46,063 nt of DNA from a virus. The stretch is taken from positions 1 through 46,063 of the IMG/VR virus record IMGVR_UViG_3300050009_000007. The stretch is one strand, 5' to 3'. Shown piece by piece: positions 4,151 to 46,063 of this stretch. Every line of letters begins with the position of its first letter. Position 1 is the stretch's first letter. Position numbers and translations under genes: made by a program. A model generated the notes under the pieces. The model saw only the letters and a list, made by a program, of their open reading frames with translations. It was not told where the DNA came from and did no database searches.

Positions 4151-4539
4151 CGACCGGCGATAACTGTTTTTGACCTACCAAACCCAAACTGGTTTTTCTT
4201 CGGAGTGATGCGCCGCTTCTTCTCGTTGGTTTCTTTCCTGACATCCTCAATCCGTTCCTCAACGGTCTTGGTGTTCCGTTCGGGATTTGTGAACTCCCAC
4301 GCGGCGGTTTGGGGCGCGGCTTCTGGCGACATAACGAAGTCTCTGTAAATCCAGCCACGGTCATTTGTCCAGAGCCAGTAACGGCGCGGATTTCCGTCAG
4401 CCTCGTAAGCCTCAAAGTCAATCGGTCGAAAGAATAGGCGCATACCACACCGGCCACAAACCTCTGATGTTTTTGAAATGGGCTTGTTGCGGCACTGTGG
4501 ACACCGCTTTATGTCTCTCAGCAGAATGTATTCACTCAT
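4147..4539 (-). CDS. Zinc-ribbon protein (130 aa), antisense to the packaging genes
   Basis: CPQC...CGRCG near the N-terminus and a basic C-terminus. ATGA overlap with the upstream 59-aa ORF. Its stop overlaps the terL stop by 4 nt (convergent). Confidence 0.6.
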   Translation of the reverse strand: MSEYILLRDIKRCPQCRNKPISKTSEVCGRCGMRLFFRPIDFEAYEADGNPRRYWLWTNDRGWIYRDFVMSPEAAPQTAAWEFTNPERNTKTVEERIEDVRKETNEKKRRITPKKNQFGFGRSKTVIAGR

Positions 4540-4715
4540 ATCGCAAAGATGTGTGGAATCTGCATTTCAACCGTTTTGTTCAAAGGCAGGGTTGCCCACT
4601 GCTCCGATGTGACTGGAACCAGAATTTCGGCCAACTCGCCAACCGGAACGAATCTGCCGAACTTGCCGGTTTCATTCTGAATCATTCCAACAATTTGTCC
4701 AAATGTTTTGTTCAT
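4536..4715 (-). CDS. Small hypothetical protein (59 aa)
   Basis: Translated by hand: MNKTFGQIVGMIQNETGKFGRFVPVGELAEILVPVTSEQWATLPLNKTVEMQIPHIFAI. It is below the ORF-track threshold and shares an ATGA overlap with 4147..4539. Confidence 0.35.
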   Translation of the reverse strand: MNKTFGQIVGMIQNETGKFGRFVPVGELAEILVPVTSEQWATLPLNKTVEMQIPHIFAI

Positions 4716-4916
4716 AATCTTACCAAGAATTTAGGATTCAACCGGAAGCAGCGCCGGATGTCGGCCCATCGGAAATAAAACCATGCCCTGACGAGCATTT
4801 CTTTTGTCACAATGATTGGTTCCGGGGATTTTCTTCCCACGGTTTAATTTAATCATGGCCGGAGCGGGTTGCAAGAAATAGTTGCATTTTTTTCAGTTTG
4901 TCGTATTTATACAGAA

Positions 4917-5117
4917 ATGGCGCAGACGCAATTTGAGATTGGGGACATCCTCGCCTCTAGCAAGGCGTGGGATGATTACAAGGCGCAATGGCTGTCGGAT
5001 TTGAAGAAAGCCAAGCAATCCGAACCAACGCCGATTCAAATTGCCAGCCTGCACGAAACATTCATTGAATTTTGGCTGATGGGGAGAACGAGCAATGCCG
5101 ACACTATCAGCAATTGA
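4917..5117 (+). CDS. Small hypothetical protein (66 aa) upstream of the portal gene
   Basis: ATG 4917 lies within ORF 4869..5117. It overlaps the portal start by 23 nt. Confidence 0.45.
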   Translation: MAQTQFEIGDILASSKAWDDYKAQWLSDLKKAKQSEPTPIQIASLHETFIEFWLMGRTSNADTISN

Positions 5118-10681: not shown

Positions 10682-12175
10682 ATGGGGAATACAATCAAAA
10701 ACCACTATGAACACACCAACGCCTCTTTCAACGAGGTTTTCGCTGGTGAGTATAAAATGCCTCTCGTTGCCGCCCCTGAAACGGTTCTCGACATAGGCGC
10801 AAACGAGGGGGCTTTCACGGCTTGGGCATTGGAGGAATGGCCGAATTCTCAGATAAACGCATTCGAGCCAATTCCTGAAAATGCCGAGTATTTCAGGAAG
10901 AACATCAATGGTAGTCCCAATGTTCGATTCTTCGAGCGGGCAATCGCCCCGCTGAGTCCGGTCAGGATGTTCTATGGCAAGGGAAATAGCGGCCAATGCT
11001 CACTGTATCGAAACGGGGAACAGACTGAAAAATCTATTGAGGTCAATGCCGTCCCGTCCAAAGAACTTCCAAGCTGCGAATTCGTCAAGGTAGATGCCGA
11101 AGGGTCGGAACTGGACATCATCACCAATCTCGATCTATCCAAGACCAAGGCTGTTGCTTTTGAATATCACAGTTGGCCGGATGCGGAGCGTATTATTCAA
11201 CATCTGGAATCGAGCGGATTCGAGTCGGTTGAACACCGTGCGAGTTCAAGTCATCGCGGGGTGTTGAAGTTCGCCCGTCCTGACGCTGTGATTAAAAAGT
11301 CCAAGGGGACAAAGAGCGCCGTCAAGGTGTTCATCGGAGTGCCGAGCTTTTTCCATATTGACCCATATTTTCACCGCTGCTTGTTGATGACCTATGGATG
11401 GCTTTCGAGTCAGCCGGACGTTCCAGAGGCCATACATGGCGCTGTGGCGCACTCTTTCGGTGACAGCCCGCATGTCGGGCGGTCGCGCAACATGATTACC
11501 CGCAACTTTCTTGAAAGTGATTGCACCGACCTGCTGTTCATTGACAGCGACCTTGTTTTCAGCATTGACCATGTAAAGCGGATACTGTCGCATGACGAGG
11601 AAGTTGTCGGCGGGATGTATTTCAAGAAAAGCCAGGGAGCGCCAGAGCCGTGCCTGAACACAATCCGAAATCCGATTGTGAAGTCAAATGGCCTGAATCA
11701 GGTTGCCTACATCGGCACGGGGTTCATGAGAATCAAGCGGATTGTATTTGAGAAAATCATCGAACGATGGGGTGACGAGATTGCCTATTGCCCCGATGGA
11801 ACAACCGACATTCTGGAATACAACTTCTGGAATCTGGCAACCAATACGTTCGCGGAAGAAATCATCGCTGTTTATCCCGAACGGGTTGAGGCGCTGGTCA
11901 AAAAGTATGGCGTGACACCAGAGCGTGCCGCAAAAGCCATTCGCACCCGCTGGCTGTCGGAAGATTGGTGGTTCTGCCAGCGATGCAACGATTTGGGATT
12001 CAATGTTTGGGCAGACAGGCGCATTGCCCTGAAACATTCCGGCAACGTGCTTTACCCGCTCGAAACACAAGAGCAGGAGATTTTCGGAAAACCAATTATT
12101 TACGGGAGTAACCCTCCCGCCAGCGCCGATGCCATGCCGTCAGCTTCCCCACTGGCAGTTCCGGCGTCGGCGTGA
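10682..12175 (+). CDS. Fusion protein: FkbM-family SAM methyltransferase (N-terminal) plus GT-A-type glycosyltransferase (C-terminal)
   Basis: N-terminal half: VLDIGANEGAFTAWA...INAFEPIPENAEYFRKN...FVKVDAEGSELDI (FkbM/Methyltransf_21 pattern). C-terminal half: LLFIDSDLVF (DxD-like), VVGGMYFKK, GTGFMRIKRIVFEKI (GT-A-like). Confidence 0.8.
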   Translation: MGNTIKNHYEHTNASFNEVFAGEYKMPLVAAPETVLDIGANEGAFTAWALEEWPNSQINAFEPIPENAEYFRKNINGSPNVRFFERAIAPLSPVRMFYGKGNSGQCSLYRNGEQTEKSIEVNAVPSKELPSCEFVKVDAEGSELDIITNLDLSKTKAVAFEYHSWPDAERIIQHLESSGFESVEHRASSSHRGVLKFARPDAVIKKSKGTKSAVKVFIGVPSFFHIDPYFHRCLLMTYGWLSSQPDVPEAIHGAVAHSFGDSPHVGRSRNMITRNFLESDCTDLLFIDSDLVFSIDHVKRILSHDEEVVGGMYFKKSQGAPEPCLNTIRNPIVKSNGLNQVAYIGTGFMRIKRIVFEKIIERWGDEIAYCPDGTTDILEYNFWNLATNTFAEEIIAVYPERVEALVKKYGVTPERAAKAIRTRWLSEDWWFCQRCNDLGFNVWADRRIALKHSGNVLYPLETQEQEIFGKPIIYGSNPPASADAMPSASPLAVPASA

Positions 12176-26777: not shown

Positions 26778-27302
26778 ATGAGCCGCGCACTCACCATTCT
26801 GTGTCTGCTGCTGTGCTCGATGAGGGTGCAGTCCGCTCCGATCAACGCCAAGCTGTCCAATCTGCTGATGCAGCCAGCGGTAGTGGAAGCAACTGCGCCA
26901 ACTGTAACTCTGACCATCTACGCTACGCCAAATCTGCAAACTCCTGTTTGGCAAGTCTTGACCAATGTTTCGATTCCGGTATCGTGGATTTCCCAATATA
27001 CAAATCAGCCGAGCTATTACCAACACTTAGCCTGTGACCCAATAACCGATCCGATTGTGGCCGGGGTGAAGATATATTGGGGCACGACGAACGCGATTGA
27101 CTTCGGGATGACCACAAACTTTTTCGTTACGGGGCTGCCCTCAACACCTGTAACATTTTACACCACAACCTACGCCAGCAACGGGGCAGAGAGCGTTCCA
27201 TCCAACGCAGTCAACGCCCCTCCGAACACTAATTATCCTCCGATAACAGTGTTCTTCAAAGACACCGCGCCGGTTACAACCAAGCTGGCAATCTCAAAAT
27301 GA
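26778..27302 (+). CDS. Secreted protein (174 aa), possibly FN3-like
   Basis: Signal peptide MSRALTILCLLLCSMRVQSA|PINA. The FN3 guess rests on GVKIYWGTT...FFVTGLPSTPVTFYTTTYASNGAESVPS. Confidence 0.55.
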   Translation: MSRALTILCLLLCSMRVQSAPINAKLSNLLMQPAVVEATAPTVTLTIYATPNLQTPVWQVLTNVSIPVSWISQYTNQPSYYQHLACDPITDPIVAGVKIYWGTTNAIDFGMTTNFFVTGLPSTPVTFYTTTYASNGAESVPSNAVNAPPNTNYPPITVFFKDTAPVTTKLAISK

Positions 27303-27319: not shown

Positions 27320-27709
27320 ATGTTCACATCATCAATCGCAAAAGGAACAGCAACCTTGGTTGGAATGTTGGCGGCAACCACATTTGCGACGAACAAGATT
27401 CTGGCTGTTACAATCAGTGAGGACACTCCAATCACGCTAAAAGCCGCCTGCTATGTTGGCGTTGCCATTCTGACTCTTGCCATTTGGATAAACAAAAATC
27501 TGTCCGACTCAAAAGTTGCCGCAAAACAGGCGGCAGAAGCGGCGGCACAGGCTTGCACCCATGCAGAATCTGCAAACAGAATAGCCGTCACGACTGCGAG
27601 GGATATGAGTAATGCAATTGGCGGGCTAAAAACACAACTGTCAAATCTGCCTTGCCACAGGGCGGATGTAAAATGTCCCACCACCGAAACAACAAAATTA
27701 AATTTATGA
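27320..27709 (+). CDS. Membrane protein (129 aa): two hydrophobic segments plus an Ala-rich C-terminal domain (holin or i-spanin-like)
   Basis: Hydrophobic segments GTATLVGMLAATTFA and AACYVGVAILTLAIWI, then a helical tail KVAAKQAAEAAAQA. ATGA overlap with the next gene. Confidence 0.5.
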   Translation: MFTSSIAKGTATLVGMLAATTFATNKILAVTISEDTPITLKAACYVGVAILTLAIWINKNLSDSKVAAKQAAEAAAQACTHAESANRIAVTTARDMSNAIGGLKTQLSNLPCHRADVKCPTTETTKLNL

Positions 27710-28044
27710 ATCCAATTCTCACATCCGCTCTTGGGAGCATCCTCCGTTACGCGCTGATGCTGCTCGTCCCGTATTTTGTCAAACACGGCATCTGGACTCA
27801 ATCAGCCGCCGAGGGTTATGTCGAGGCCGCTGTCGCCGGACTGTTAGCCCTTGGCTGGTCATGGTGGAAGATTCACGGCAACCGGGTTAAGCTGCTAACG
27901 GCGCTGGCCATGCCGGACGGCGCGACGGAGAATGATCTGAACGCGCACATAGCATCAGGGTCAACCGCTCCAAGCGTGCTGACGCCGCCAAACACCGTGC
28001 CAGTTTCCGTGCCGACATTTGCGCCCAAAGCACCAACGCCATGA
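27706..28044 (+). CDS. Two-TM membrane protein (112 aa), holin candidate
   Basis: ATG 27706. ILTSALGSILRYALMLLVPYFV and AAVAGLLALGWSWW followed by KIHGNR resemble a widespread proteobacterial-phage holin pattern (recalled from memory). Confidence 0.45.
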   Translation: MNPILTSALGSILRYALMLLVPYFVKHGIWTQSAAEGYVEAAVAGLLALGWSWWKIHGNRVKLLTALAMPDGATENDLNAHIASGSTAPSVLTPPNTVPVSVPTFAPKAPTP

Positions 28045-28538
28045 ATCGCGTCCTCATCACCATCCTTACACTCGCGCTCTTGACGGGGTGCGCTTCAACT
28101 CCGTTTGCCATGAAGCGGGTTGCTCCTGGCGTATGGCGCAGCAACCAGCCGCAGACTGAGGCGGATTTTGTGACGCTCACAAATCACTCCGTCCACACCA
28201 TCGTCAAATTGAATTACGAACGGATGGATTGGGAGCGGCGGATGTGCGCCCGATACAACATCGAATTATTTACGATTCCAATATCCACTGGAGAACAACT
28301 GTTTGGCGTCCCTGATCTGAAACTTCTGATGGCAATATGCGCCATAAGCGAATCCGGCACAGACATTCATTGCTGGCATGGTGAGGACAGGACTGGTGTT
28401 GTCATTGCCTTGTGGCGGGTTAAATCTCAAGGCTGGACGCGACTGGATGCTTTTACAGAAATGAAAGAAAACAATTTCCATCCCTTGCTCGTTGGTTTAT
28501 GGTGGGCATTCGATGAAAACACAAAACCAAAACTATGA
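28041..28538 (+). CDS. Lipoprotein with a Cys-based (PTP/dual-specificity) phosphatase motif
   Basis: Lipobox LALLTG|C at residues 12-17. P-loop IHCWHGEDRTGVV matches HCX5R(S/T). GVWRSNQP resembles the ..yRs.qP motif of the tyrosine-phosphatase-family proteins. Confidence 0.6.
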   Translation: MNRVLITILTLALLTGCASTPFAMKRVAPGVWRSNQPQTEADFVTLTNHSVHTIVKLNYERMDWERRMCARYNIELFTIPISTGEQLFGVPDLKLLMAICAISESGTDIHCWHGEDRTGVVIALWRVKSQGWTRLDAFTEMKENNFHPLLVGLWWAFDENTKPKL

Positions 28539-29110
28539 AAAATAAATTAGTCGCAACACTGTCCGCGCTGCTGCTTTGCGCGGGACTCACTCAAGCGCAA
28601 ACCAATGCGCCCTCAACAAACTCAACCCCGTCTGTTTCTGGTGGTATTTCTGAAATATGGACGGCACTTACCACGTCCAGTGGAACAAATGTGGACATCG
28701 GCGCTCAAACGAACTGGGCGGTAATCCCGTATATCGCCTACGATATACAAGCCAAGAAATTCGGTTATGGCGGGGCTATTCTTTACGCCGTGACACCGAA
28801 CTTTTGGGCCGGTGTTCGCGCTCAGTCGCTTGAAGGAGAACAAACTACGGCAGGTGTTCAATGCCAGTTACAAATTTCAAAGAAGTTGTGGGGCATCACC
28901 TACACCCCTTTTCTTGAAACATCTGTTGGTATTGGAAAGAGCGCGCTTTACGGCAGTGCGGGGCCGGGATTGCTTGTCAGTTTCCATACATGGGTTTGGG
29001 GAAGTAAAACCCTTACCGTTGGGGCGGTTGGCGATTATGAACACGCTGTCAGCGGGGGACGAAACTGGAATCAGGTCAACGCTGGCCCGCTCCTGAGATT
29101 CAGCTTTTAA
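28535..29110 (+). CDS. Outer-membrane beta-barrel protein (small, Lom/Ail-sized)
   Basis: Signal peptide MKNKLVATLSALLLCAGLTQA|QTNAPS. Alternating hydrophobic beta-strand pattern. The C-terminus ...GPLLRFSF ends in an aromatic residue, as in OMPs. Confidence 0.6.
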   Translation: MKNKLVATLSALLLCAGLTQAQTNAPSTNSTPSVSGGISEIWTALTTSSGTNVDIGAQTNWAVIPYIAYDIQAKKFGYGGAILYAVTPNFWAGVRAQSLEGEQTTAGVQCQLQISKKLWGITYTPFLETSVGIGKSALYGSAGPGLLVSFHTWVWGSKTLTVGAVGDYEHAVSGGRNWNQVNAGPLLRFSF

Positions 29111-29116
29111 TCTCCT

Positions 29117-29181
29117 CGCCGGGGCGCGCTTCATAAGAGTTTACTGTGTAACAAGGAGGGTTAGCCCCGGCGTTTTTGTTT
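29117..29181 (+). terminator. Terminator-like GC stem with a T tract
   Basis: cgccggggc (29117-29125) pairs with gccccggcg (29164-29172), followed by tttttgttt. The 38-nt loop is unusually long. Confidence 0.4.
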
Positions 29182-29370
29182 ATGAATAACATGAACACCG
29201 TCAAGCGTTGTCTGCTTTGCAGCGCATTAAACGAGTCGAATCTTCCTCAGTGTCATGCTTGCGGGTCGGCACAATTCATCCTTGTCCTTCCTGAAAAACC
29301 GATTCGACCAATTAACAAAAGGAGTCCTTTACGCAGACCTCCGGCTTATTCTCAACTCACAGTTTTGTAA
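29182..29370 (+). CDS. Small zinc-ribbon protein
   Basis: CLLC...CHAC four-cysteine pattern. ATG 29182 lies within ORF 29176..29370. Confidence 0.45.
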   Translation: MNNMNTVKRCLLCSALNESNLPQCHACGSAQFILVLPEKPIRPINKRSPLRRPPAYSQLTVL

Positions 29371-29405: not shown

Positions 29406-30206
29406 ATGTTCGGAGACGTGCATCGCGACAGCCCTAATCACGCCGACACAAAATGGCAGGAGGACTTGGATTATTTCCGGTCACGGAAAGACGCATACTT
29501 TTTGGGCATGGGTGATTATCTAGACTCGACATCTACCACCGAGCGGGAGTGCCTTGGGCATATTTCCAAGCAGATGCACGACACTTTTCGCAAAGACATC
29601 CAGGCGTTGCAACAGGCCAAGATTGACATGATGGCTGACGAATTGAGTTTTATGAAGGGGAGGCTGATAGGGCTTATCAACGGCAACCATTATTTTGAAT
29701 TCCAAAGCGGCATGAACAGCGACCAAAAGCTGGCTGACGCCCTAAACTGCAAATATCTAGGCGTGTGTGCCTTGATTCGCATTTATTTTAACATGGCAAA
29801 CAGGAAGTGCGCCTTGGACATATTTGCCCATCATGGCCTCGGCGCGGCAAGGCTCGTAGGCGGCTCTATCAATCGCGTGGCTCAGATGTTTGAGGGCGTT
29901 GAGGCTGATGTTGCTGTCATGGGTCATGATCATAAACGTGTGGCCGCTCCTACCACTCCCCGCCTTTTTCTTGAACACGACTCAAGGGATGGTTTGAAGT
30001 TGCGGCGGCGAGAAACTTGGGCGGTTCGGTCAGGCTCGTATCTGGCTAGCTATCGGGACGGTGAATCAAACTACAACGTGGACGCCTGCCGCCCCGCTTC
30101 ATCCTTGGGCCATGTGGAAATGCTGGTCAAGTTTACACGGGGCGGCAAGATTTCTGGTAACATAAAAGAGCGGGCGACCAGACGCGAAATAAGGTTTATA
30201 ACATGA
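29406..30206 (+). CDS. Calcineurin-like metallophosphoesterase
   Basis: Ordered motifs GDVH, GMGDYLD, NGNHY, HHG and GHDH. Confidence 0.7.
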   Translation: MFGDVHRDSPNHADTKWQEDLDYFRSRKDAYFLGMGDYLDSTSTTERECLGHISKQMHDTFRKDIQALQQAKIDMMADELSFMKGRLIGLINGNHYFEFQSGMNSDQKLADALNCKYLGVCALIRIYFNMANRKCALDIFAHHGLGAARLVGGSINRVAQMFEGVEADVAVMGHDHKRVAAPTTPRLFLEHDSRDGLKLRRRETWAVRSGSYLASYRDGESNYNVDACRPASSLGHVEMLVKFTRGGKISGNIKERATRREIRFIT

Positions 30207-30634
30207 TTGGATTCGACTCGGTTGATTTTCAAACCATCCAGTGCATTGATTACAGCGTATCGAAGCTGGTCAAGCCGGTGGATTATTTTTCGCGGGACGG
30301 GACGCATTATCGAATCCCCTACGCGCAGCCAACCGACTTTGCTTCAATTCCAAAGGTGCTTTGGGGGCCACCGCTTTACCTGATTCCGACCGGCTGGTGG
30401 TCGCTGCCGTGCATTGCCCACGACTCCGCTTTCAGGAATATGCTGTTGGTTGTCCTGCCTGACGGGTCAACGAAACTCGCCAGCCTCAATGAGCAACAAT
30501 GCAATGACCTGCTTCTGGAATCAATGCAGGCCATCAAGCCGAATCCGACTGCGTTTGAGAAGTTGCAGATGGAGGCTATTTTTCAAGGGGTCAGTATTGG
30601 TGGTGGTTCGGCCTTCAAAGATGACCGTTGCTGA
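30203..30634 (+). CDS. DUF1353-like protein
   Basis: YRIPYAQPTDFASIPKVLW...CIAHDSAF matches the vP.G..tDgaSiP...w....HD pattern. ATGA overlap with the upstream gene. Confidence 0.55.
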   Translation: MIGFDSVDFQTIQCIDYSVSKLVKPVDYFSRDGTHYRIPYAQPTDFASIPKVLWGPPLYLIPTGWWSLPCIAHDSAFRNMLLVVLPDGSTKLASLNEQQCNDLLLESMQAIKPNPTAFEKLQMEAIFQGVSIGGGSAFKDDRC

Positions 30635-31226: not shown

Positions 31227-32111
31227 TTATTTTTCGTTTGGCGTCGGGGGTTGTGGTTCGTCGTCTGGTTCGTTCGTCCAAATCAGCATGGATTGACAGT
31301 CTTGGCGCATAACATCTGAACGGTTTTCCTGCATCCACCATTTCCAAAAATCTTCCCCGGTTTTGAATCTTGCATGAAATCTTGGATGCCCCTTTTTTGT
31401 CGGAACGTCTTTCCATTTTTTCCAATTTGAGATTATGGCTTTTTTCCAGTTTCTTTCAAATGCTGGCCATCGTTTAAACTCCCGTATTCGGCTGGTGTTG
31501 TTTAGGGGGCAACCAACGCATCCCAATCGCGTCCATCCTTGGTCGTATAACTCACAGTATGGGATTTTATACTCTCGGATAAAACCCCAAAGCTGTTCAT
31601 CTGACCAGAACACAATCGGACAAACAATCCTTTCAGCATTGCGATCATCAATCGTAACTTCGCGCCACCGCCTTGCTCGCTTTGCTCCTTCTGCCGCCCG
31701 AACGCCCATTATTTTAGTTCTTCCCCGACCGCCGTTTTCCTTGTATTCCTCGCAGCACCATCGAACCATTCTTGTTGGGGGTGGAGAATTCCTATTTTCT
31801 ACACGCTTCATCATGTTCCCGTTTGGTGGTAGCTGCCAAGCAACGTCTTTATGCTCCCGTTTAATGAAATGAATCAATTCTGGCGGGTCAATGGTTGTGG
31901 ACATATACCACGCCTCAAATCTCACTCCAGAAATTTGAGCCAGCTTTTTAATTACACAGGAATCCTTTCCCCCGGAGAATGCTAAATAATATCCACCAGA
32001 AGGCTCGTTCTCTTTTAATAATTTAACAGCGCGAGCAATTAACTGTTCGGAATTAAAAGACGCAACCATCTCTTGGTCGGTTGGCTCAAAACCGTTTAGT
32101 GTGTTTTGCAT
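31227..32111 (-). CDS. PAPS-reductase-family (PP-loop ATP pyrophosphatase) protein
   Basis: YLAFSGGKDS PP-loop. IMGVRAAEGAKRARR fits G.R..ES..R. C-terminal CVGCPL cysteines and a Trp/Lys-rich tail. Confidence 0.75.
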   Translation of the reverse strand: MQNTLNGFEPTDQEMVASFNSEQLIARAVKLLKENEPSGGYYLAFSGGKDSCVIKKLAQISGVRFEAWYMSTTIDPPELIHFIKREHKDVAWQLPPNGNMMKRVENRNSPPPTRMVRWCCEEYKENGGRGRTKIMGVRAAEGAKRARRWREVTIDDRNAERIVCPIVFWSDEQLWGFIREYKIPYCELYDQGWTRLGCVGCPLNNTSRIREFKRWPAFERNWKKAIISNWKKWKDVPTKKGHPRFHARFKTGEDFWKWWMQENRSDVMRQDCQSMLIWTNEPDDEPQPPTPNEK

Positions 32112-32266: not shown

Positions 32267-32470
32267 TCATGGCTTTGCAAGCGGTTTTTCCTCGATTGGT
32301 GGGGCAAAATATCCGCCTGTTATTTCGTCGTCACGCTCGGTCACATAGACCGTTTTCCCGCCGCCGCAAGCGGGGCAGGTTTCACCGGCGTTTGAACTGG
32401 TCAGAAGCGTGCTGCCAATCCAGCCGCGCCCGCCGCACGATGGACATAGAATTGGATAGGTTCTGGTCAT
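32267..32470 (-). CDS. Small DnaJ-type zinc-finger protein
   Basis: Two CxxCxGxG-like units (CPSCGGRG, CPACGGGK). ATG 32468-32470 forms an ATGA overlap with the upstream gene. Confidence 0.55.
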   Translation of the reverse strand: MTRTYPILCPSCGGRGWIGSTLLTSSNAGETCPACGGGKTVYVTERDDEITGGYFAPPIEEKPLAKP

Positions 32471-32895
32471 TTTATTTCCTTTCGTTGGCACAAATTAGCG
32501 AATTTTTGGGCGAAATCTGCCTGTTCCCGGTTCGGGTGCCGGATTGCGCCCGGACAATGCCAAAGCAGGCCCGTTTCGTAGTCAGTCGGCCAGCGGTGGT
32601 GAATTCTGTCAAAATGGGCACAGGAACGCACCAGGATGACCGCTGTGGCGTCGGAAACCCATTTAGCATTGATTTTAGCTGGAATGGGTATTTTGCACTC
32701 CCTGAGGCGATACGGCATGATTTGAGTCTCGCCAAGCTCGCCAGATGGCCCACAGTGACGATTAGAGCCGTTTTCAAGCTGTTTTAAGGCCCAAATCTGT
32801 CGCTCCATGCTGCTCTGCGCTGATGCGGAAAGGCAGAGGGTAAGAATCAGCACCGTGCAGCCGATGCAAGTTTTTGCGGTGCTAAAAGTGGTCAT
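32467..32895 (-). CDS. Secreted lytic transglycosylase (SLT-like), endolysin candidate
   Basis: N-terminal hydrophobic signal (CIGCTVLILTLCLSASA|QS). LKQLENGSN....GELGETQIMP fits E(S/N)....G..G..Qi.P of SLT domains. Confidence 0.55.
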   Translation of the reverse strand: MTTFSTAKTCIGCTVLILTLCLSASAQSSMERQIWALKQLENGSNRHCGPSGELGETQIMPYRLRECKIPIPAKINAKWVSDATAVILVRSCAHFDRIHHRWPTDYETGLLWHCPGAIRHPNREQADFAQKFANLCQRKEIK

Positions 32896-44913: not shown

Positions 44914-45630
44914 TTAGTTGTAGTCAATCGCCTCTTGTTTGCTGATAAAAAAGTGGATTCCGTTTGAGCATTCCACCAGCGGGTTAGGGTCGTAGGTGTC
45001 CGGCTTGACCGTCTCGCCAACCTTGTATTCCATGCCGTTATGCTGGCTTTGACCGTTGCCCTCAAGCACCACGGCAAATTCAGCGCGACATTTGCGGCCA
45101 ATAAAACCGCCAACACGTTTTGCTTTCGCCGGAATTTGCAGTTTGCAAATCACCCCATCACACAATTTCTTCCAGCCAACTAAATCACCGTCCGGCACAA
45201 TCGTCCTGACAGCTAAAAGTTTTAGAAGGTCTGCGCCTGACAGGTATGCGCGTGACAGGTCTGCGCCTGACAGGTCTGCGCGTGACAGGTCTGCGCCTGA
45301 CAGGTTTGCGCCTGACAGGTTTGCGCCTGACAGGTCTGCGCCTGACAGGTCTGCGCGTGACAGGTTTGCGCCTGACAGGTCTGCGCCTGACAGGTTTGCG
45401 CCTGACAGGTCTGCGCGTGACAGGTCTGCGCCTGACAGGTCTGCGCCTGACAGGTTTGCGCCTGACAGGTCTGCGCCTGACAGGTTTGCGCCTGACAGGC
45501 TTGCGCCTGACAGGTATGCGCCTGACAGGTCTGCGCCTGACAGGTTTGCGCCTGCCTCGCCTATATTTTCTTCGTCGGATTCAAACAGGATTATTTCGCT
45601 ATTCCAGCGTGAGACGATTTTAATTTTCAT
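44914..45630 (-). CDS. Pentapeptide-repeat protein, paralog B (238 aa)
   Basis: About 22 consecutive A(D/N/Y/S)LS(G/R) pentapeptides flanked by a 27-aa N-terminal segment and a ~100-aa C-terminal domain ([24 protein letters not shown]). Confidence 0.9.
45228..45554. repeat. 15-bp tandem repeat array (21 full units plus a partial unit), the coding DNA of the paralog B pentapeptides
   Basis: Same unit as 301..552 but five units longer and with a different order of unit variants. Confidence 0.95.
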
Positions 45631-45725
45631 AATTTTGCGTTGAGTTGGGGGTTATTAGTCATTTTCGCCGGTCATGTCGCGTTCAAAACCGGCGCGCCGT
45701 CGTTCGCGTTTGGTTTTTCATAATT

Positions 45726-46063
45726 TTAGTTGTAGTTGTAGTCATTCGCCTCTTGTTTGCTGATAAAAAAGTGGATTCCGTTTGAGCATTCCACCAGCGG
45801 GTTAGGGTCGTAGGTGTCCGGCTTGACCGTCTCGCCAACCTTGTATTCCATGCCGTTATGCTGGCTTTGACCGTTGCCCTCAAGCACCACGGCAAATTCA
45901 GCGCGACATTTGCGGCCAATAAAACCGCCAACACGTTTTGCTTTCGCCGGAATTTGCAGTTTGCAAATCACCCCATCACACAATTTCTTCCAGCCAACTA
46001 AATCACCGTCCGGCACAATCGTCCTGACAGCTAAAAGTTTTAGAAGGTCTGCGCCTGACAGGT
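45726..46063 (-). CDS. Pentapeptide-repeat protein paralog A, C-terminal part (runs off the window end; continues at 319..628 if circular; 215 aa in total)
   Basis: The stop is at 45726-45728 (rc). The C-terminus ...[17 protein letters not shown] differs from paralog B (...QEAIDYN). 45746..46063 is identical to 1..318. Confidence 0.8.
   Translation of the reverse strand, partial: LSGADLLKLLAVRTIVPDGDLVGWKKLCDGVICKLQIPAKAKRVGGFIGRKCRAEFAVVLEGNGQSQHNGMEYKVGETVKPDTYDPNPLVECSNGIHFFISKQEANDYNYN
45746..46063. repeat. 318-bp terminal overlap with 1..318 (circular closure or terminal redundancy)
   Basis: The sequence is identical by eye over the full 318 bp. Confidence 0.85.

Follow-up and report, generated by a model that had tools for sequence, protein, structure and literature searches.

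A small outer-membrane beta-barrel linked to holin-family genes in a mosaic, candidate lysis module of a peat or bog phage

The DNA analysed here, called the window throughout, is IMG/VR virus record IMGVR_UViG_3300050009_000007 from position 1 to 46,063, a stretch of 46,063 nucleotides. The subject is a cassette of four plus-strand genes, g1 to g4 (27320..29110), the last of which encodes a predicted outer-membrane beta-barrel. The two ends of the contig were identical (1-318 = 45746-46063, an exact terminal overlap of 318 bp). Therefore, the window carries a complete genome, circular or terminally redundant, of about 45.7 kb. It is the genome of a phage of a presumed diderm host from peat or bog metagenomes. 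Pfam and PHROG scans identified a terminase, a Mu-type portal, a GP7-type capsid, and a Mu gp36-like protein. The genome also encodes several large proteins of the tail or its fibres, among them one that carries a BNR domain; the replication module was located on the minus strand, and no tRNAs were found.

The cassette was located at the end of the late (tail-fibre) operon, where the original prediction had placed it, and its described composition was confirmed as two predicted inner-membrane proteins, a predicted lipoprotein phosphatase, and a predicted outer-membrane barrel. The first gene, g1 (27320..27709, +), encodes a small inner-membrane protein of 129 amino acids (aa), as judged by hydropathy. 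It is followed by g2 (27706..28044, +), a holin-family protein of 112 aa with two transmembrane segments and a Pro-rich C-terminal tail, by g3 (28041..28538, +), a lipoprotein of 165 aa resembling the Cys-based dual-specificity phosphatase TpbA, and by g4 (28535..29110, +), a signal-peptide protein of 191 aa forming an 8-stranded barrel. These open reading frame (ORF) lengths agreed with the first description. The g2 protein has 112 aa only from the ATG at 27706, and the mechanical ORF list has an earlier TTG start.

The three ATGA start/stop overlaps from which translational coupling had been proposed were confirmed in the sequence at 27706-27709, 28041-28044, and 28535-28538. Overlaps of 4 nt were counted at 8 of the 46 same-strand junctions in this genome, so that three in a row are unremarkable for a phage. 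The successive overlaps are real coupling, yet they are also ordinary phage gene packing. The GC content varied by gene (47% in g1, 59% in g2, 50% in g3, and 51% in g4), which fits a mosaic origin. The terminator-like hairpin expected behind the cassette was found, with a GC stem and a U-run (29117..29181, +). Its 9-bp stem pairs CGCCGGGGC (29117-29125) with GCCCCGGCG (29164-29172) across a long loop and is followed by TTTTTGTTT. The folding energy was -26 kcal/mol, with z = -2.0 against shuffled sequences, of which 6/200 were equally stable. A simple terminator scan did not report the hairpin at this position because its loop is long.

The structure of g4 was modelled with AlphaFold2 on 26 homologs and compared using Foldseek. 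The mean predicted local distance difference test (pLDDT) score was 79, and values exceeded 90 over most of residues 60-191. In the model, the signal peptide leads into a short N-terminal helix on the periplasmic side, and eight long strands follow at residues 60-190, with inter-strand connections that were all 2-4 residues long. The protein ends in RFSF, an aromatic beta-signal. The best Foldseek matches were designed 8-strand transmembrane barrels, the transmembrane domains of OmpA and OprF, and NspA. According to the model, g4 is predicted to be an 8-stranded outer-membrane barrel with minimal loops.

Sequence searches gave g4 no Pfam family at E <= 1, including Ail_Lom and OMP_b-brl, and no PHROG match, and its profile found nothing among PDB sequences. 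A single very distant representative of the family, P0060, touched OMP_b-brl (E 0.0015). The homologs, 26 at 43-100% identity and 23 representative clusters at E < 1e-30, all came from metagenomic or viral contigs, and the family is taken to be phage-borne. The g4 profile had no match in 185,579 GTDB species genomes, and GenBank phages searched as DNA and protein with the region, g4, and g2 likewise gave no match.

The neighbourhood of the barrel was surveyed in about 29 distinct metagenomic phage loci carrying a g4-family member (L numbers below). The order g1-g2-g3-g4 was found in none of them. The original prediction had proposed a stoichiometrically coupled unit of two inner-membrane proteins, a lipoprotein, and an outer-membrane protein, and had suggested looking for the same gene order in other phages; a conserved unit of this kind was not borne out, since the order did not recur and g1 to g3 were exchanged beside a nearly identical barrel. 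The exchange was observed in L030, which is 98% identical from g4 through g6. The hairpin is kept there along with the g4-g6 block at 98% DNA identity, and the g1-g3 segment (window 27322-28557) is swapped for an unrelated 812 bp. This 812-bp segment encodes a protein with a transmembrane segment and a coiled coil, plus a two-transmembrane protein with a Pro-rich tail.

Across the loci, a recurrent pattern was seen. In nearly every case, between one and three genes for small membrane proteins lay upstream of the barrel. These proteins had either a transmembrane segment and a coiled coil or two transmembrane segments and a Pro-rich tail, and the one in L019 matched Phage_holin_10 (E 1e-4). The barrel start overlapped the upstream stop by 4 nt in L013, L016, L019, L021, and L022. 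The slot 3' of the barrel was occupied by a signal-less enzyme belonging to one of four families, namely DUF1353, YiiX-like permuted NlpC/P60, Lipase_3, or patatin. Based on these comparisons, the module is mosaic rather than a fixed four-protein machine, with the barrel as its conserved core.

These results make it very improbable that g1 to g4 form an obligate complex of fixed stoichiometry, acting as one machine across the inner membrane, periplasm, and outer membrane. Such a complex would account for the three consecutive ATGA overlaps and for predicted locations that span every envelope layer. However, 4-nt overlaps are common in this genome, the four-gene order occurs in no other locus, and the lone distant g3 homolog stands in a different order. 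The genes also recombine independently, as g2 was found at 88% identity beside another barrel without g1 or g3.

Residues 8-55 of g2 matched Pfam PF23987, Phage_holin_10 (the Pam3 gp28 family), at E 3.7e-7; the score of 30.5 bits exceeds the gathering cut-off, which is 27 for this family. Hydropathy placed hydrophobic segments at residues ~4-20 and ~34-50, followed by a Pro/Thr-rich tail of 54 aa. By profile match, g2 is classed as a member of this Pfam holin family, and holin activity is predicted.

The link between holin-type proteins and the barrel was also found within single proteins. Several single ORFs begin with a holin-type N-terminus and continue through a Pro-rich linker and an internal signal-peptide-like segment into a barrel. 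In P0070, a Phage_holin_10 domain (E 2.6e-10), that is, the family of g2, is followed by a g4-like barrel in one continuous ORF (L054 820-1752). The fusion P0093 showed a weak match to the Hol44 holin family, and further holin-type/barrel fusions were P0029, P0048, and P0049. One two-transmembrane N-terminal module (MNIHYLLIGIAL...) was fused to both of two barrel families, to one in P0006 and P0013 and to the other in P0186. The u-spanin gp11 of phage T1 has an outer-membrane lipoprotein signal and a C-terminal transmembrane segment. The holin-barrel fusions, before any cleavage, would similarly join inner- and outer-membrane anchors in one chain; they differ from gp11 in that holin-type transmembrane hairpins form the N-terminus and a barrel forms the C-terminus, with a signal peptide between them that looks cleavable.

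The second barrel family was found through g2. Homologs of g2 with 88% identity were present in four IMG/VR contigs (L055-L058) without g1, g3, or g4. In these contigs, the g2 ortholog is ATGA-coupled to a different secreted protein of 211 aa, in which the g4 hidden Markov model recognised nothing past the signal peptide. Its predicted structure (pLDDT 79) was nevertheless an 8-stranded barrel, and the N-terminal helix seen in g4 was present here too. Its Foldseek matches were PagL at the top, then OmpX, designed barrels, and OmpA. A YiiX-like gene follows this barrel, and a 60% identical member of the second family precedes a Lipase_3 gene, mirroring the g4-family arrangement of L016. Two sequence-unrelated barrels in one slot, together with the repeated holin fusions, are the strongest arguments that the barrel is probably tied to the holin in function and not a passenger.

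Both barrel families carry a similar motif after the signal peptide, P-S/T-V/I-x-GG-L/I-S-x-I/F-W, which is predicted to be helical (g4 residues 33-47; residues 30-45 of the L055 protein encoded at 4354-4989). The sequences of this periplasmic helix in the two families are PSVSGGISEIWTALT and PTIGGLISTFSLWVS. The helix is missing in the short members (168-172 aa) of the g4 family. This motif may be a plug or an interaction element.

The conservation pattern of g4 was considered with regard to a possible enzymatic function of the barrel, namely modification or hydrolysis of lipopolysaccharide or phospholipid in the manner of PagL, PagP, or OMPLA. The invariant polar residues are R95, Q109/111/113, E128, S130, D167, E169, and H170, and they cluster in the outer half of the barrel. 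PagL as the top structural match of the substitute family and the lipid-active enzymes encoded nearby also point in this direction. However, the invariant residues alternate along the strands, the pattern expected of a lumen-lining network and typical of OmpA- and OmpX-type barrels. PagL (PDB 2ERV) has a catalytic His-x-Ser plus a Glu on neighbouring strands facing the outer leaflet. Unlike this arrangement, H170, S130, E128, and E169 of g4 lie on the non-adjacent strands 5 and 7. Furthermore, the substitute barrel has no invariant His, and the Foldseek matches are generic 8-strand barrels with TM-scores of 0.4-0.7. A PagL-like g4 was rejected as the leading idea on account of the residue pattern and the lack of a conserved His in the substitute family, and an enzymatic barrel in general is regarded as highly unlikely.

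The upstream membrane proteins were compared with g1. In g1, a weak hydrophobic segment (14-32) and a strong one (42-58) precede a helical, Ala/Lys-rich (K/R-rich) tail of 71 aa; the hydropathy and the K/R-rich tail suggest an N-in/C-in topology. No Pfam or PHROG family and no match in viral contigs were found for g1. Its N-terminal 73 aa showed 29% identity (pairwise E 2e-7) to a two-transmembrane protein of 100 aa in L022, located two genes upstream of the barrel. The g1 protein is a candidate holin-class or holin-accessory protein. The position of g1 is occupied in relatives by clear examples of proteins with a transmembrane segment and a coiled coil, and g1 itself has two hydrophobic segments.

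No canonical spanin lipoprotein was found. In the genome, g3 is the sole lipobox ORF, and the window has no small lipobox ORF of the o- or u-spanin type; none was found either in 29 loci when the 2.5 kb around the barrel was searched. This absence raises the question of whether the barrel is itself the outer-membrane subunit of a spanin, with the upstream transmembrane and periplasmic coiled-coil protein as its partner and the fusions as unimolecular versions. Suitable partners were present upstream of the barrel in L001, L002, L007, L013, L017, L019, L021, L030, and L055, and nearby in L016; these are type-II transmembrane proteins of 85-153 aa with a K/R-rich N-terminus and a coiled coil. 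The similar periplasmic helix of both barrel families would also suit such a pairing, but this helix is lacking in the short members. In the window, g1 resembles a two-transmembrane protein with a cytoplasmic-type tail and not an i-spanin. Unrelated upstream proteins were found beside a 98% identical barrel, unlike the co-inherited Rz/Rz1, and the fusions with holin-type domains keep a cleavable signal peptide, so that the two parts probably separate after export. A barrel spanin is therefore considered improbable.

The enzyme genes 3' of the barrel form the other recurrent part of the module. DUF1353 was found downstream in 8 loci (the window, L030, L007, L010, L032, L038, L048, and L050), the permuted (His-before-Cys), YiiX-like NlpC/P60 family in at least 12 loci, Lipase_3 in L016, and patatin in L004. 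Lipase_3 and patatin proteins are lipases by family definition. The YiiX-like neighbours matched Pfam Peptidase_C92 (E 3e-5 and 2e-3) and YiiX in the PDB (E 4.3e-4), and the permuted NlpC/P60 clades, YiiX-like and LRAT-like, are described as lipid-binding or lipid-active (PMC3142127, PMC12994826). The barrel-adjoining enzymes of all four families have no signal peptide. To reach the envelope they would need the holin, as classical endolysins do.

In the window, this enzyme is g6 (30203..30634, +), a DUF1353 protein of 143 aa without a signal peptide and a candidate phospholipase A2 (PLA2); within this sub-clade, DUF1353 is the partner that recurs downstream of the barrel. Its match to Pfam DUF1353 (E 2.5e-4) scored 21.0 bits, under the cut-off of 22.5. 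Orthologs of g6 were found 3' of the barrel at 61-95% identity in L030, L007, L010, L048, and L052, and more distant ones (~31-33%) in L032 and L050. The DUF1353 protein TtaP of the typhoid-toxin islet has been shown experimentally to be a PLA2 with the catalytic residues H70, D71, and D85 (PMC11525133). The candidate counterparts in g6, H73, D74, and D87, are invariant in three orthologs and similarly spaced (H-D...D). Like TtaP, g6 lacks a secretion signal. The ttaP gene lies beside the phage-type muramidase gene ttsA, and the likeness of TtaP to prophage DUF1353 proteins has been stated (PMC11525133). The differences are that the Pfam score of g6 is slightly sub-threshold and that its PLA2 role is a candidate only; for TtaP itself, no envelope phenotype was observed in S. 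Typhi (PMC11525133).

The lipolytic LysB of mycobacteriophages detaches the mycolic outer membrane and has been called the counterpart of spanins (PMC5707550). What LysB and the modules proposed here would have in common is an enzymatic, lipid-directed outer-membrane step and a gene placed within the lysis cassette. LysB is a cutinase-like esterase acting on mycolyl-arabinogalactan, whereas the enzymes here are DUF1353/PLA2, YiiX-like, Lipase_3, or patatin proteins. The host outer membrane here would be of the classical BAM- and lipoprotein-containing type, and the enzymes are accompanied by a barrel.

The observation that the cassette contains no muramidase or amidase was upheld by Pfam scans covering the main ORFs genome-wide, in which no canonical endolysin was detected. 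As first reported, the genome's only peptidoglycan-hydrolase candidate is on the opposite strand (32467..32895, -), a secreted, weakly SLT-like protein of 142 aa with a signal peptide and an E...GPSGE...QIMP motif. Homologs were present in L030 (adjoining and convergent to DUF1353), L007, and L016, and 1 of 4 homologs matched Pfam SLT (E 0.0028). The protein gave no PDB sequence match, either alone or as a profile.

Compared with a lambda-type lysis cassette (S, R, Rz/Rz1), the region shares small membrane-protein genes, overlapping frames, and a position at the operon end. It also shares a holin-family member (g2), a soluble signal-less hydrolase adjoining in relatives, and mosaic gene replacement. 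The differences are the lack of a recognisable endolysin and of an o- or u-spanin lipoprotein, an 8-stranded barrel as the conserved third element, and partner enzymes from lipid-active and not muralytic families.

The lipoprotein g3 has the lipobox LLTG|C with Ala at +2, predicting periplasmic export, and the P-loop HCWHGEDRTG. It matched Pfam Y_phosphatase2 with 28.4 bits against a threshold of 27, and its best solved relative was TpbA of P. aeruginosa (4R0S/2M3V; E 1.1e-7, g3 residues 23-146). From these matches, g3 is classed as a lipoprotein of the TpbA-type Cys-phosphatase family, with predicted activity. In P. aeruginosa, TpbA works in the periplasm as a dual-specificity tyrosine phosphatase, and its action reduces both c-di-GMP and the formation of biofilm (PMC2691606, PMC4409338). 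TpbA (PA3885) and g3 align over 124 residues, including the HCxHGxxRTG P-loop, and both are exported to the periplasm. They differ in that g3 is lipid-anchored through its lipobox and TpbA is soluble, in the acidic P-loop of g3 (GEDRTG versus GNNRTG), and in that g3 is encoded by a phage within the putative lysis module.

A search of viral contigs and a 5.8-billion-protein index with g3 returned only g3 itself and no other cluster. The only homolog, from the surveyed locus L047, has 35% identity, the P-loop HCEHGEDRTG, and a lipobox, and its gene is flanked by the barrel gene, which it immediately follows, and a YiiX-like gene. The g3 gene is also absent from L030 and is an accessory gene outside the conserved core. 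The original prediction considered this lipoprotein too large for an o-spanin and enzyme-like, and the mature part is indeed a globular phosphatase domain of 148 aa. PHROG matches to 'Rz-like spanin' were weak (E 0.009) and confined to the signal peptide. An oversized o-spanin was rejected as an identity for g3, given the globular enzyme domain, its absence from nearly all relatives, and its occurrence on either side of the barrel.

Several other genes flank the cassette. Directly upstream, g0 (26778..27302, +) encodes a secreted fn3-like protein of 174 aa with a signal peptide, which is 90-92% identical in L030 and has weaker homologs in L053 and L013. In many relatives, fn3-like secreted proteins or lipoproteins of 105-235 aa are sited between the tail-fibre and the small membrane-protein genes. 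The counterparts at the same position in L007 (2788-3219), L010/11 (L011 3226-3585), L017 (3243-3680), L021 (3250-3840), and L055 (2773-3336) are lipoproteins. The fn3-like protein may be part of the envelope module or else a virion accessory, and g0 may stand outside the lysis module.

Downstream of the hairpin, a small ORF (29176..29370, +) may encode a zinc-ribbon-like protein of 62-64 aa with a CxxC...CxxC pattern; an identical ORF is present in L030, and no Pfam match was found. It is followed by g5 (29406..30206, +), a metallophosphoesterase-like protein of 266 aa with GDxxD, GNH, and GHDH motifs that matched PHROG 7339, 'DNA repair exonuclease' (E 5.6e-16). The g5 gene is an insertion common only to the window and L030 and is absent between the barrel and DUF1353 in L010, L032, and L050; the zinc-ribbon-like ORF and g5 are inserted together between these genes only in the window and L030. 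With g3 and g5, two different phosphatase-type genes are located within 2 kb.

Other enzymes were observed in the barrel modules of relatives. These were a protein in L033 (2246-2650) that has an SLT motif and either a signal or a lipoprotein leader, papain-like C1-type peptidases in L021 (4124-4846) and L019 (6609-7238), and a DUF7689 protein in L007 (5218-5787). In L004/L005 (1486-2637), an IS605 OrfB / Cas12f-like TnpB gene lies beside the tail-fibre genes of the barrel-carrying contig.

Elsewhere in the window, a protein of 497 aa with an FkbM-type methyltransferase domain (E 2.3e-8) is encoded inside the head/tail structural block (10682-12175, +). A PAPS-reductase-domain protein (31227-32111, -; E 4e-21) lies between the DUF1353 and SLT-like genes. 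Its gene is missing from the near-identical L030, in which the DUF1353 and SLT-like genes are directly convergent. A pentapeptide-repeat gene (44914-45630; Pfam Pentapeptide E 2.5e-45) is located near the contig end, and positions 1-676 are a second, paralogous copy of 44928-45678, 89% identical and adjoining this gene. This suggests a tandem duplication of the pentapeptide-repeat gene over the contig junction.

The position of the cassette and its accessory genes also fit a set of morons, in which g4, with g3, would alter the host surface so as to exclude superinfecting phages, mask receptors, or protect the cell during infection or lysogeny. Such a set would resemble lambda Lom/Bor, T5 Llp, or Cor, and the end of the late operon would be a permissive insertion site. 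The cassette lies directly 3' of the tail-fibre genes with a terminator-like hairpin after it, its gene-by-gene GC differences mark a mosaic region as in a hot spot, and other accessory genes are nearby, including the metallophosphoesterase, the PAPS reductase, and an HNH-like gene in L004. Some relatives have integrases, and small barrels of unknown role are encoded by many phages. The TpbA family acts on signalling and biofilm and not on lysis (PMC2691606).

Other features of the barrel speak against this reading. It is kept across otherwise diverged phages, while the true accessory genes g3 and g5 come and go. A lysogenic-conversion gene would not usually lack homologs in bacteria, yet the barrel has none in the 185,579 species genomes searched. 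Morons are as a rule transcribed from a promoter of their own, without translational overlap or fusion to a holin-type gene. Lom, Ail, and OmpX share with g4 the signal peptide, the 8-stranded barrel, the C-terminal aromatic residue, and, in the phage case, a place downstream of tail genes. Apart from the missing Ail_Lom and OMP_b-brl matches, g4 differs from them in its genetic setting, being coupled or fused to holin-type genes and not an autonomous transcription unit. Their loops are long and protruding, whereas the short connections in the g4 model leave almost nothing surface-exposed to mask or bind. In addition, Pfam and PHROG scans of the window's ORFs showed neither an integrase nor a repressor, which speaks against a lysogenic-conversion role in this phage. 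A moron set is accordingly judged unlikely, though not negligible.

Among the roles proposed by the original prediction, lysis or outer-membrane disruption is the one best backed by the results, through the holin-barrel coupling, the fusions, and the lipid-hydrolase neighbours. It stands as the role of a mosaic module and not of a four-protein machine. We place at about even the chance that the region, where the late operon ends on its 3' side, is a lysis or envelope module and that the barrel has a lysis-linked role.

The proposed sequence of events is as follows. During late expression, g1 and g2 would build up in the inner membrane. The barrel g4 would be exported by Sec, inserted by the beta-barrel assembly machinery (BAM), and accumulate in the outer membrane, with coupling or fusion keeping it in step with the holin. 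Lipid-anchored in the periplasm, g3 would be an optional envelope-modifying accessory. Holin triggering would let the cytoplasmic DUF1353 phospholipase into the periplasm, or, in other phages, the YiiX-like enzyme, the lipase, or the patatin, and the secreted SLT-like protein would attack the wall meanwhile. The barrel would act in the final step, at the outer membrane, where it would dock or activate the lipid hydrolase or else weaken the membrane directly. In this way, it would stand in for spanins.

The specific new mechanism is more tentative than the lysis-linked role as such. Minimal barrels of at least two sequence-unrelated families may possibly be an unrecognised class of phage lysis protein, working with a holin-released phospholipase or acyl-hydrolase to break down the outer membrane in spanin-less phages. 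Under the same proposal, and with similar reserve, they may be made in step with the holin or as a cleavable holin fusion. If so, which we regard as conceivable but short of probable, a barrel with a lipid hydrolase would be a third solution to the outer membrane, beside spanins and cationic 'disruptin' peptides.

Several points weigh against a lysis-linked barrel. The adjacency and coupling could reflect mere late co-expression of envelope proteins, and the position after the tail fibres and before the terminator is also the site of the moron lom in lambda. Viral structure predictions indicate that many phage proteomes include small barrels without an assigned function. Because g1 to g3 are exchanged beside a 98% identical g4 in L030, the barrel cannot require a particular partner among them. 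Phage_holin_10 is named from an annotated cyanophage gene, and a functional test was not found in the literature. Lipid activity of the YiiX-like neighbours would follow from family membership at sub-threshold scores, and the sole wall-hydrolase candidate is a weak one on the other strand. A DUF1353 profile searched against genomes gave matches at only 27-36% in unrelated taxa and hence no host inference.

Taken singly, the holin, the dual-specificity phosphatase, the PLA2-like protein, and the 8-stranded protein of the outer membrane are all of known kinds. What is new is the combination of a barrel linked to the holin with an adjoining lipid hydrolase, of which no description was found in the literature. 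The original prediction knew of no beta-barrel in a lysis cassette, and none was found in the literature here either; to our knowledge, a holin-linked barrel with a lipid hydrolase has no precedent among characterised lysis systems. As a separate curiosity, the phage carries inside the putative lysis module, as g3, a relative of a protein that regulates biofilm and c-di-GMP.

The lysis field has yet to settle how spanin-less phages of diderm bacteria get through the outer membrane. The candidate offered here is a compact barrel family and an interchangeable second family, which are genetically joined to holins and adjoined by four lipid-hydrolase families. If the proposal is true, the lysis paradigm would gain a further class of component, and some of the many 'hypothetical proteins' of environmental phages would be explained. 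The phage DUF1353 and YiiX-like genes would also acquire a function. Furthermore, small self-inserting barrels and outer-membrane-active enzymes would become available as tools against Gram-negative bacteria.

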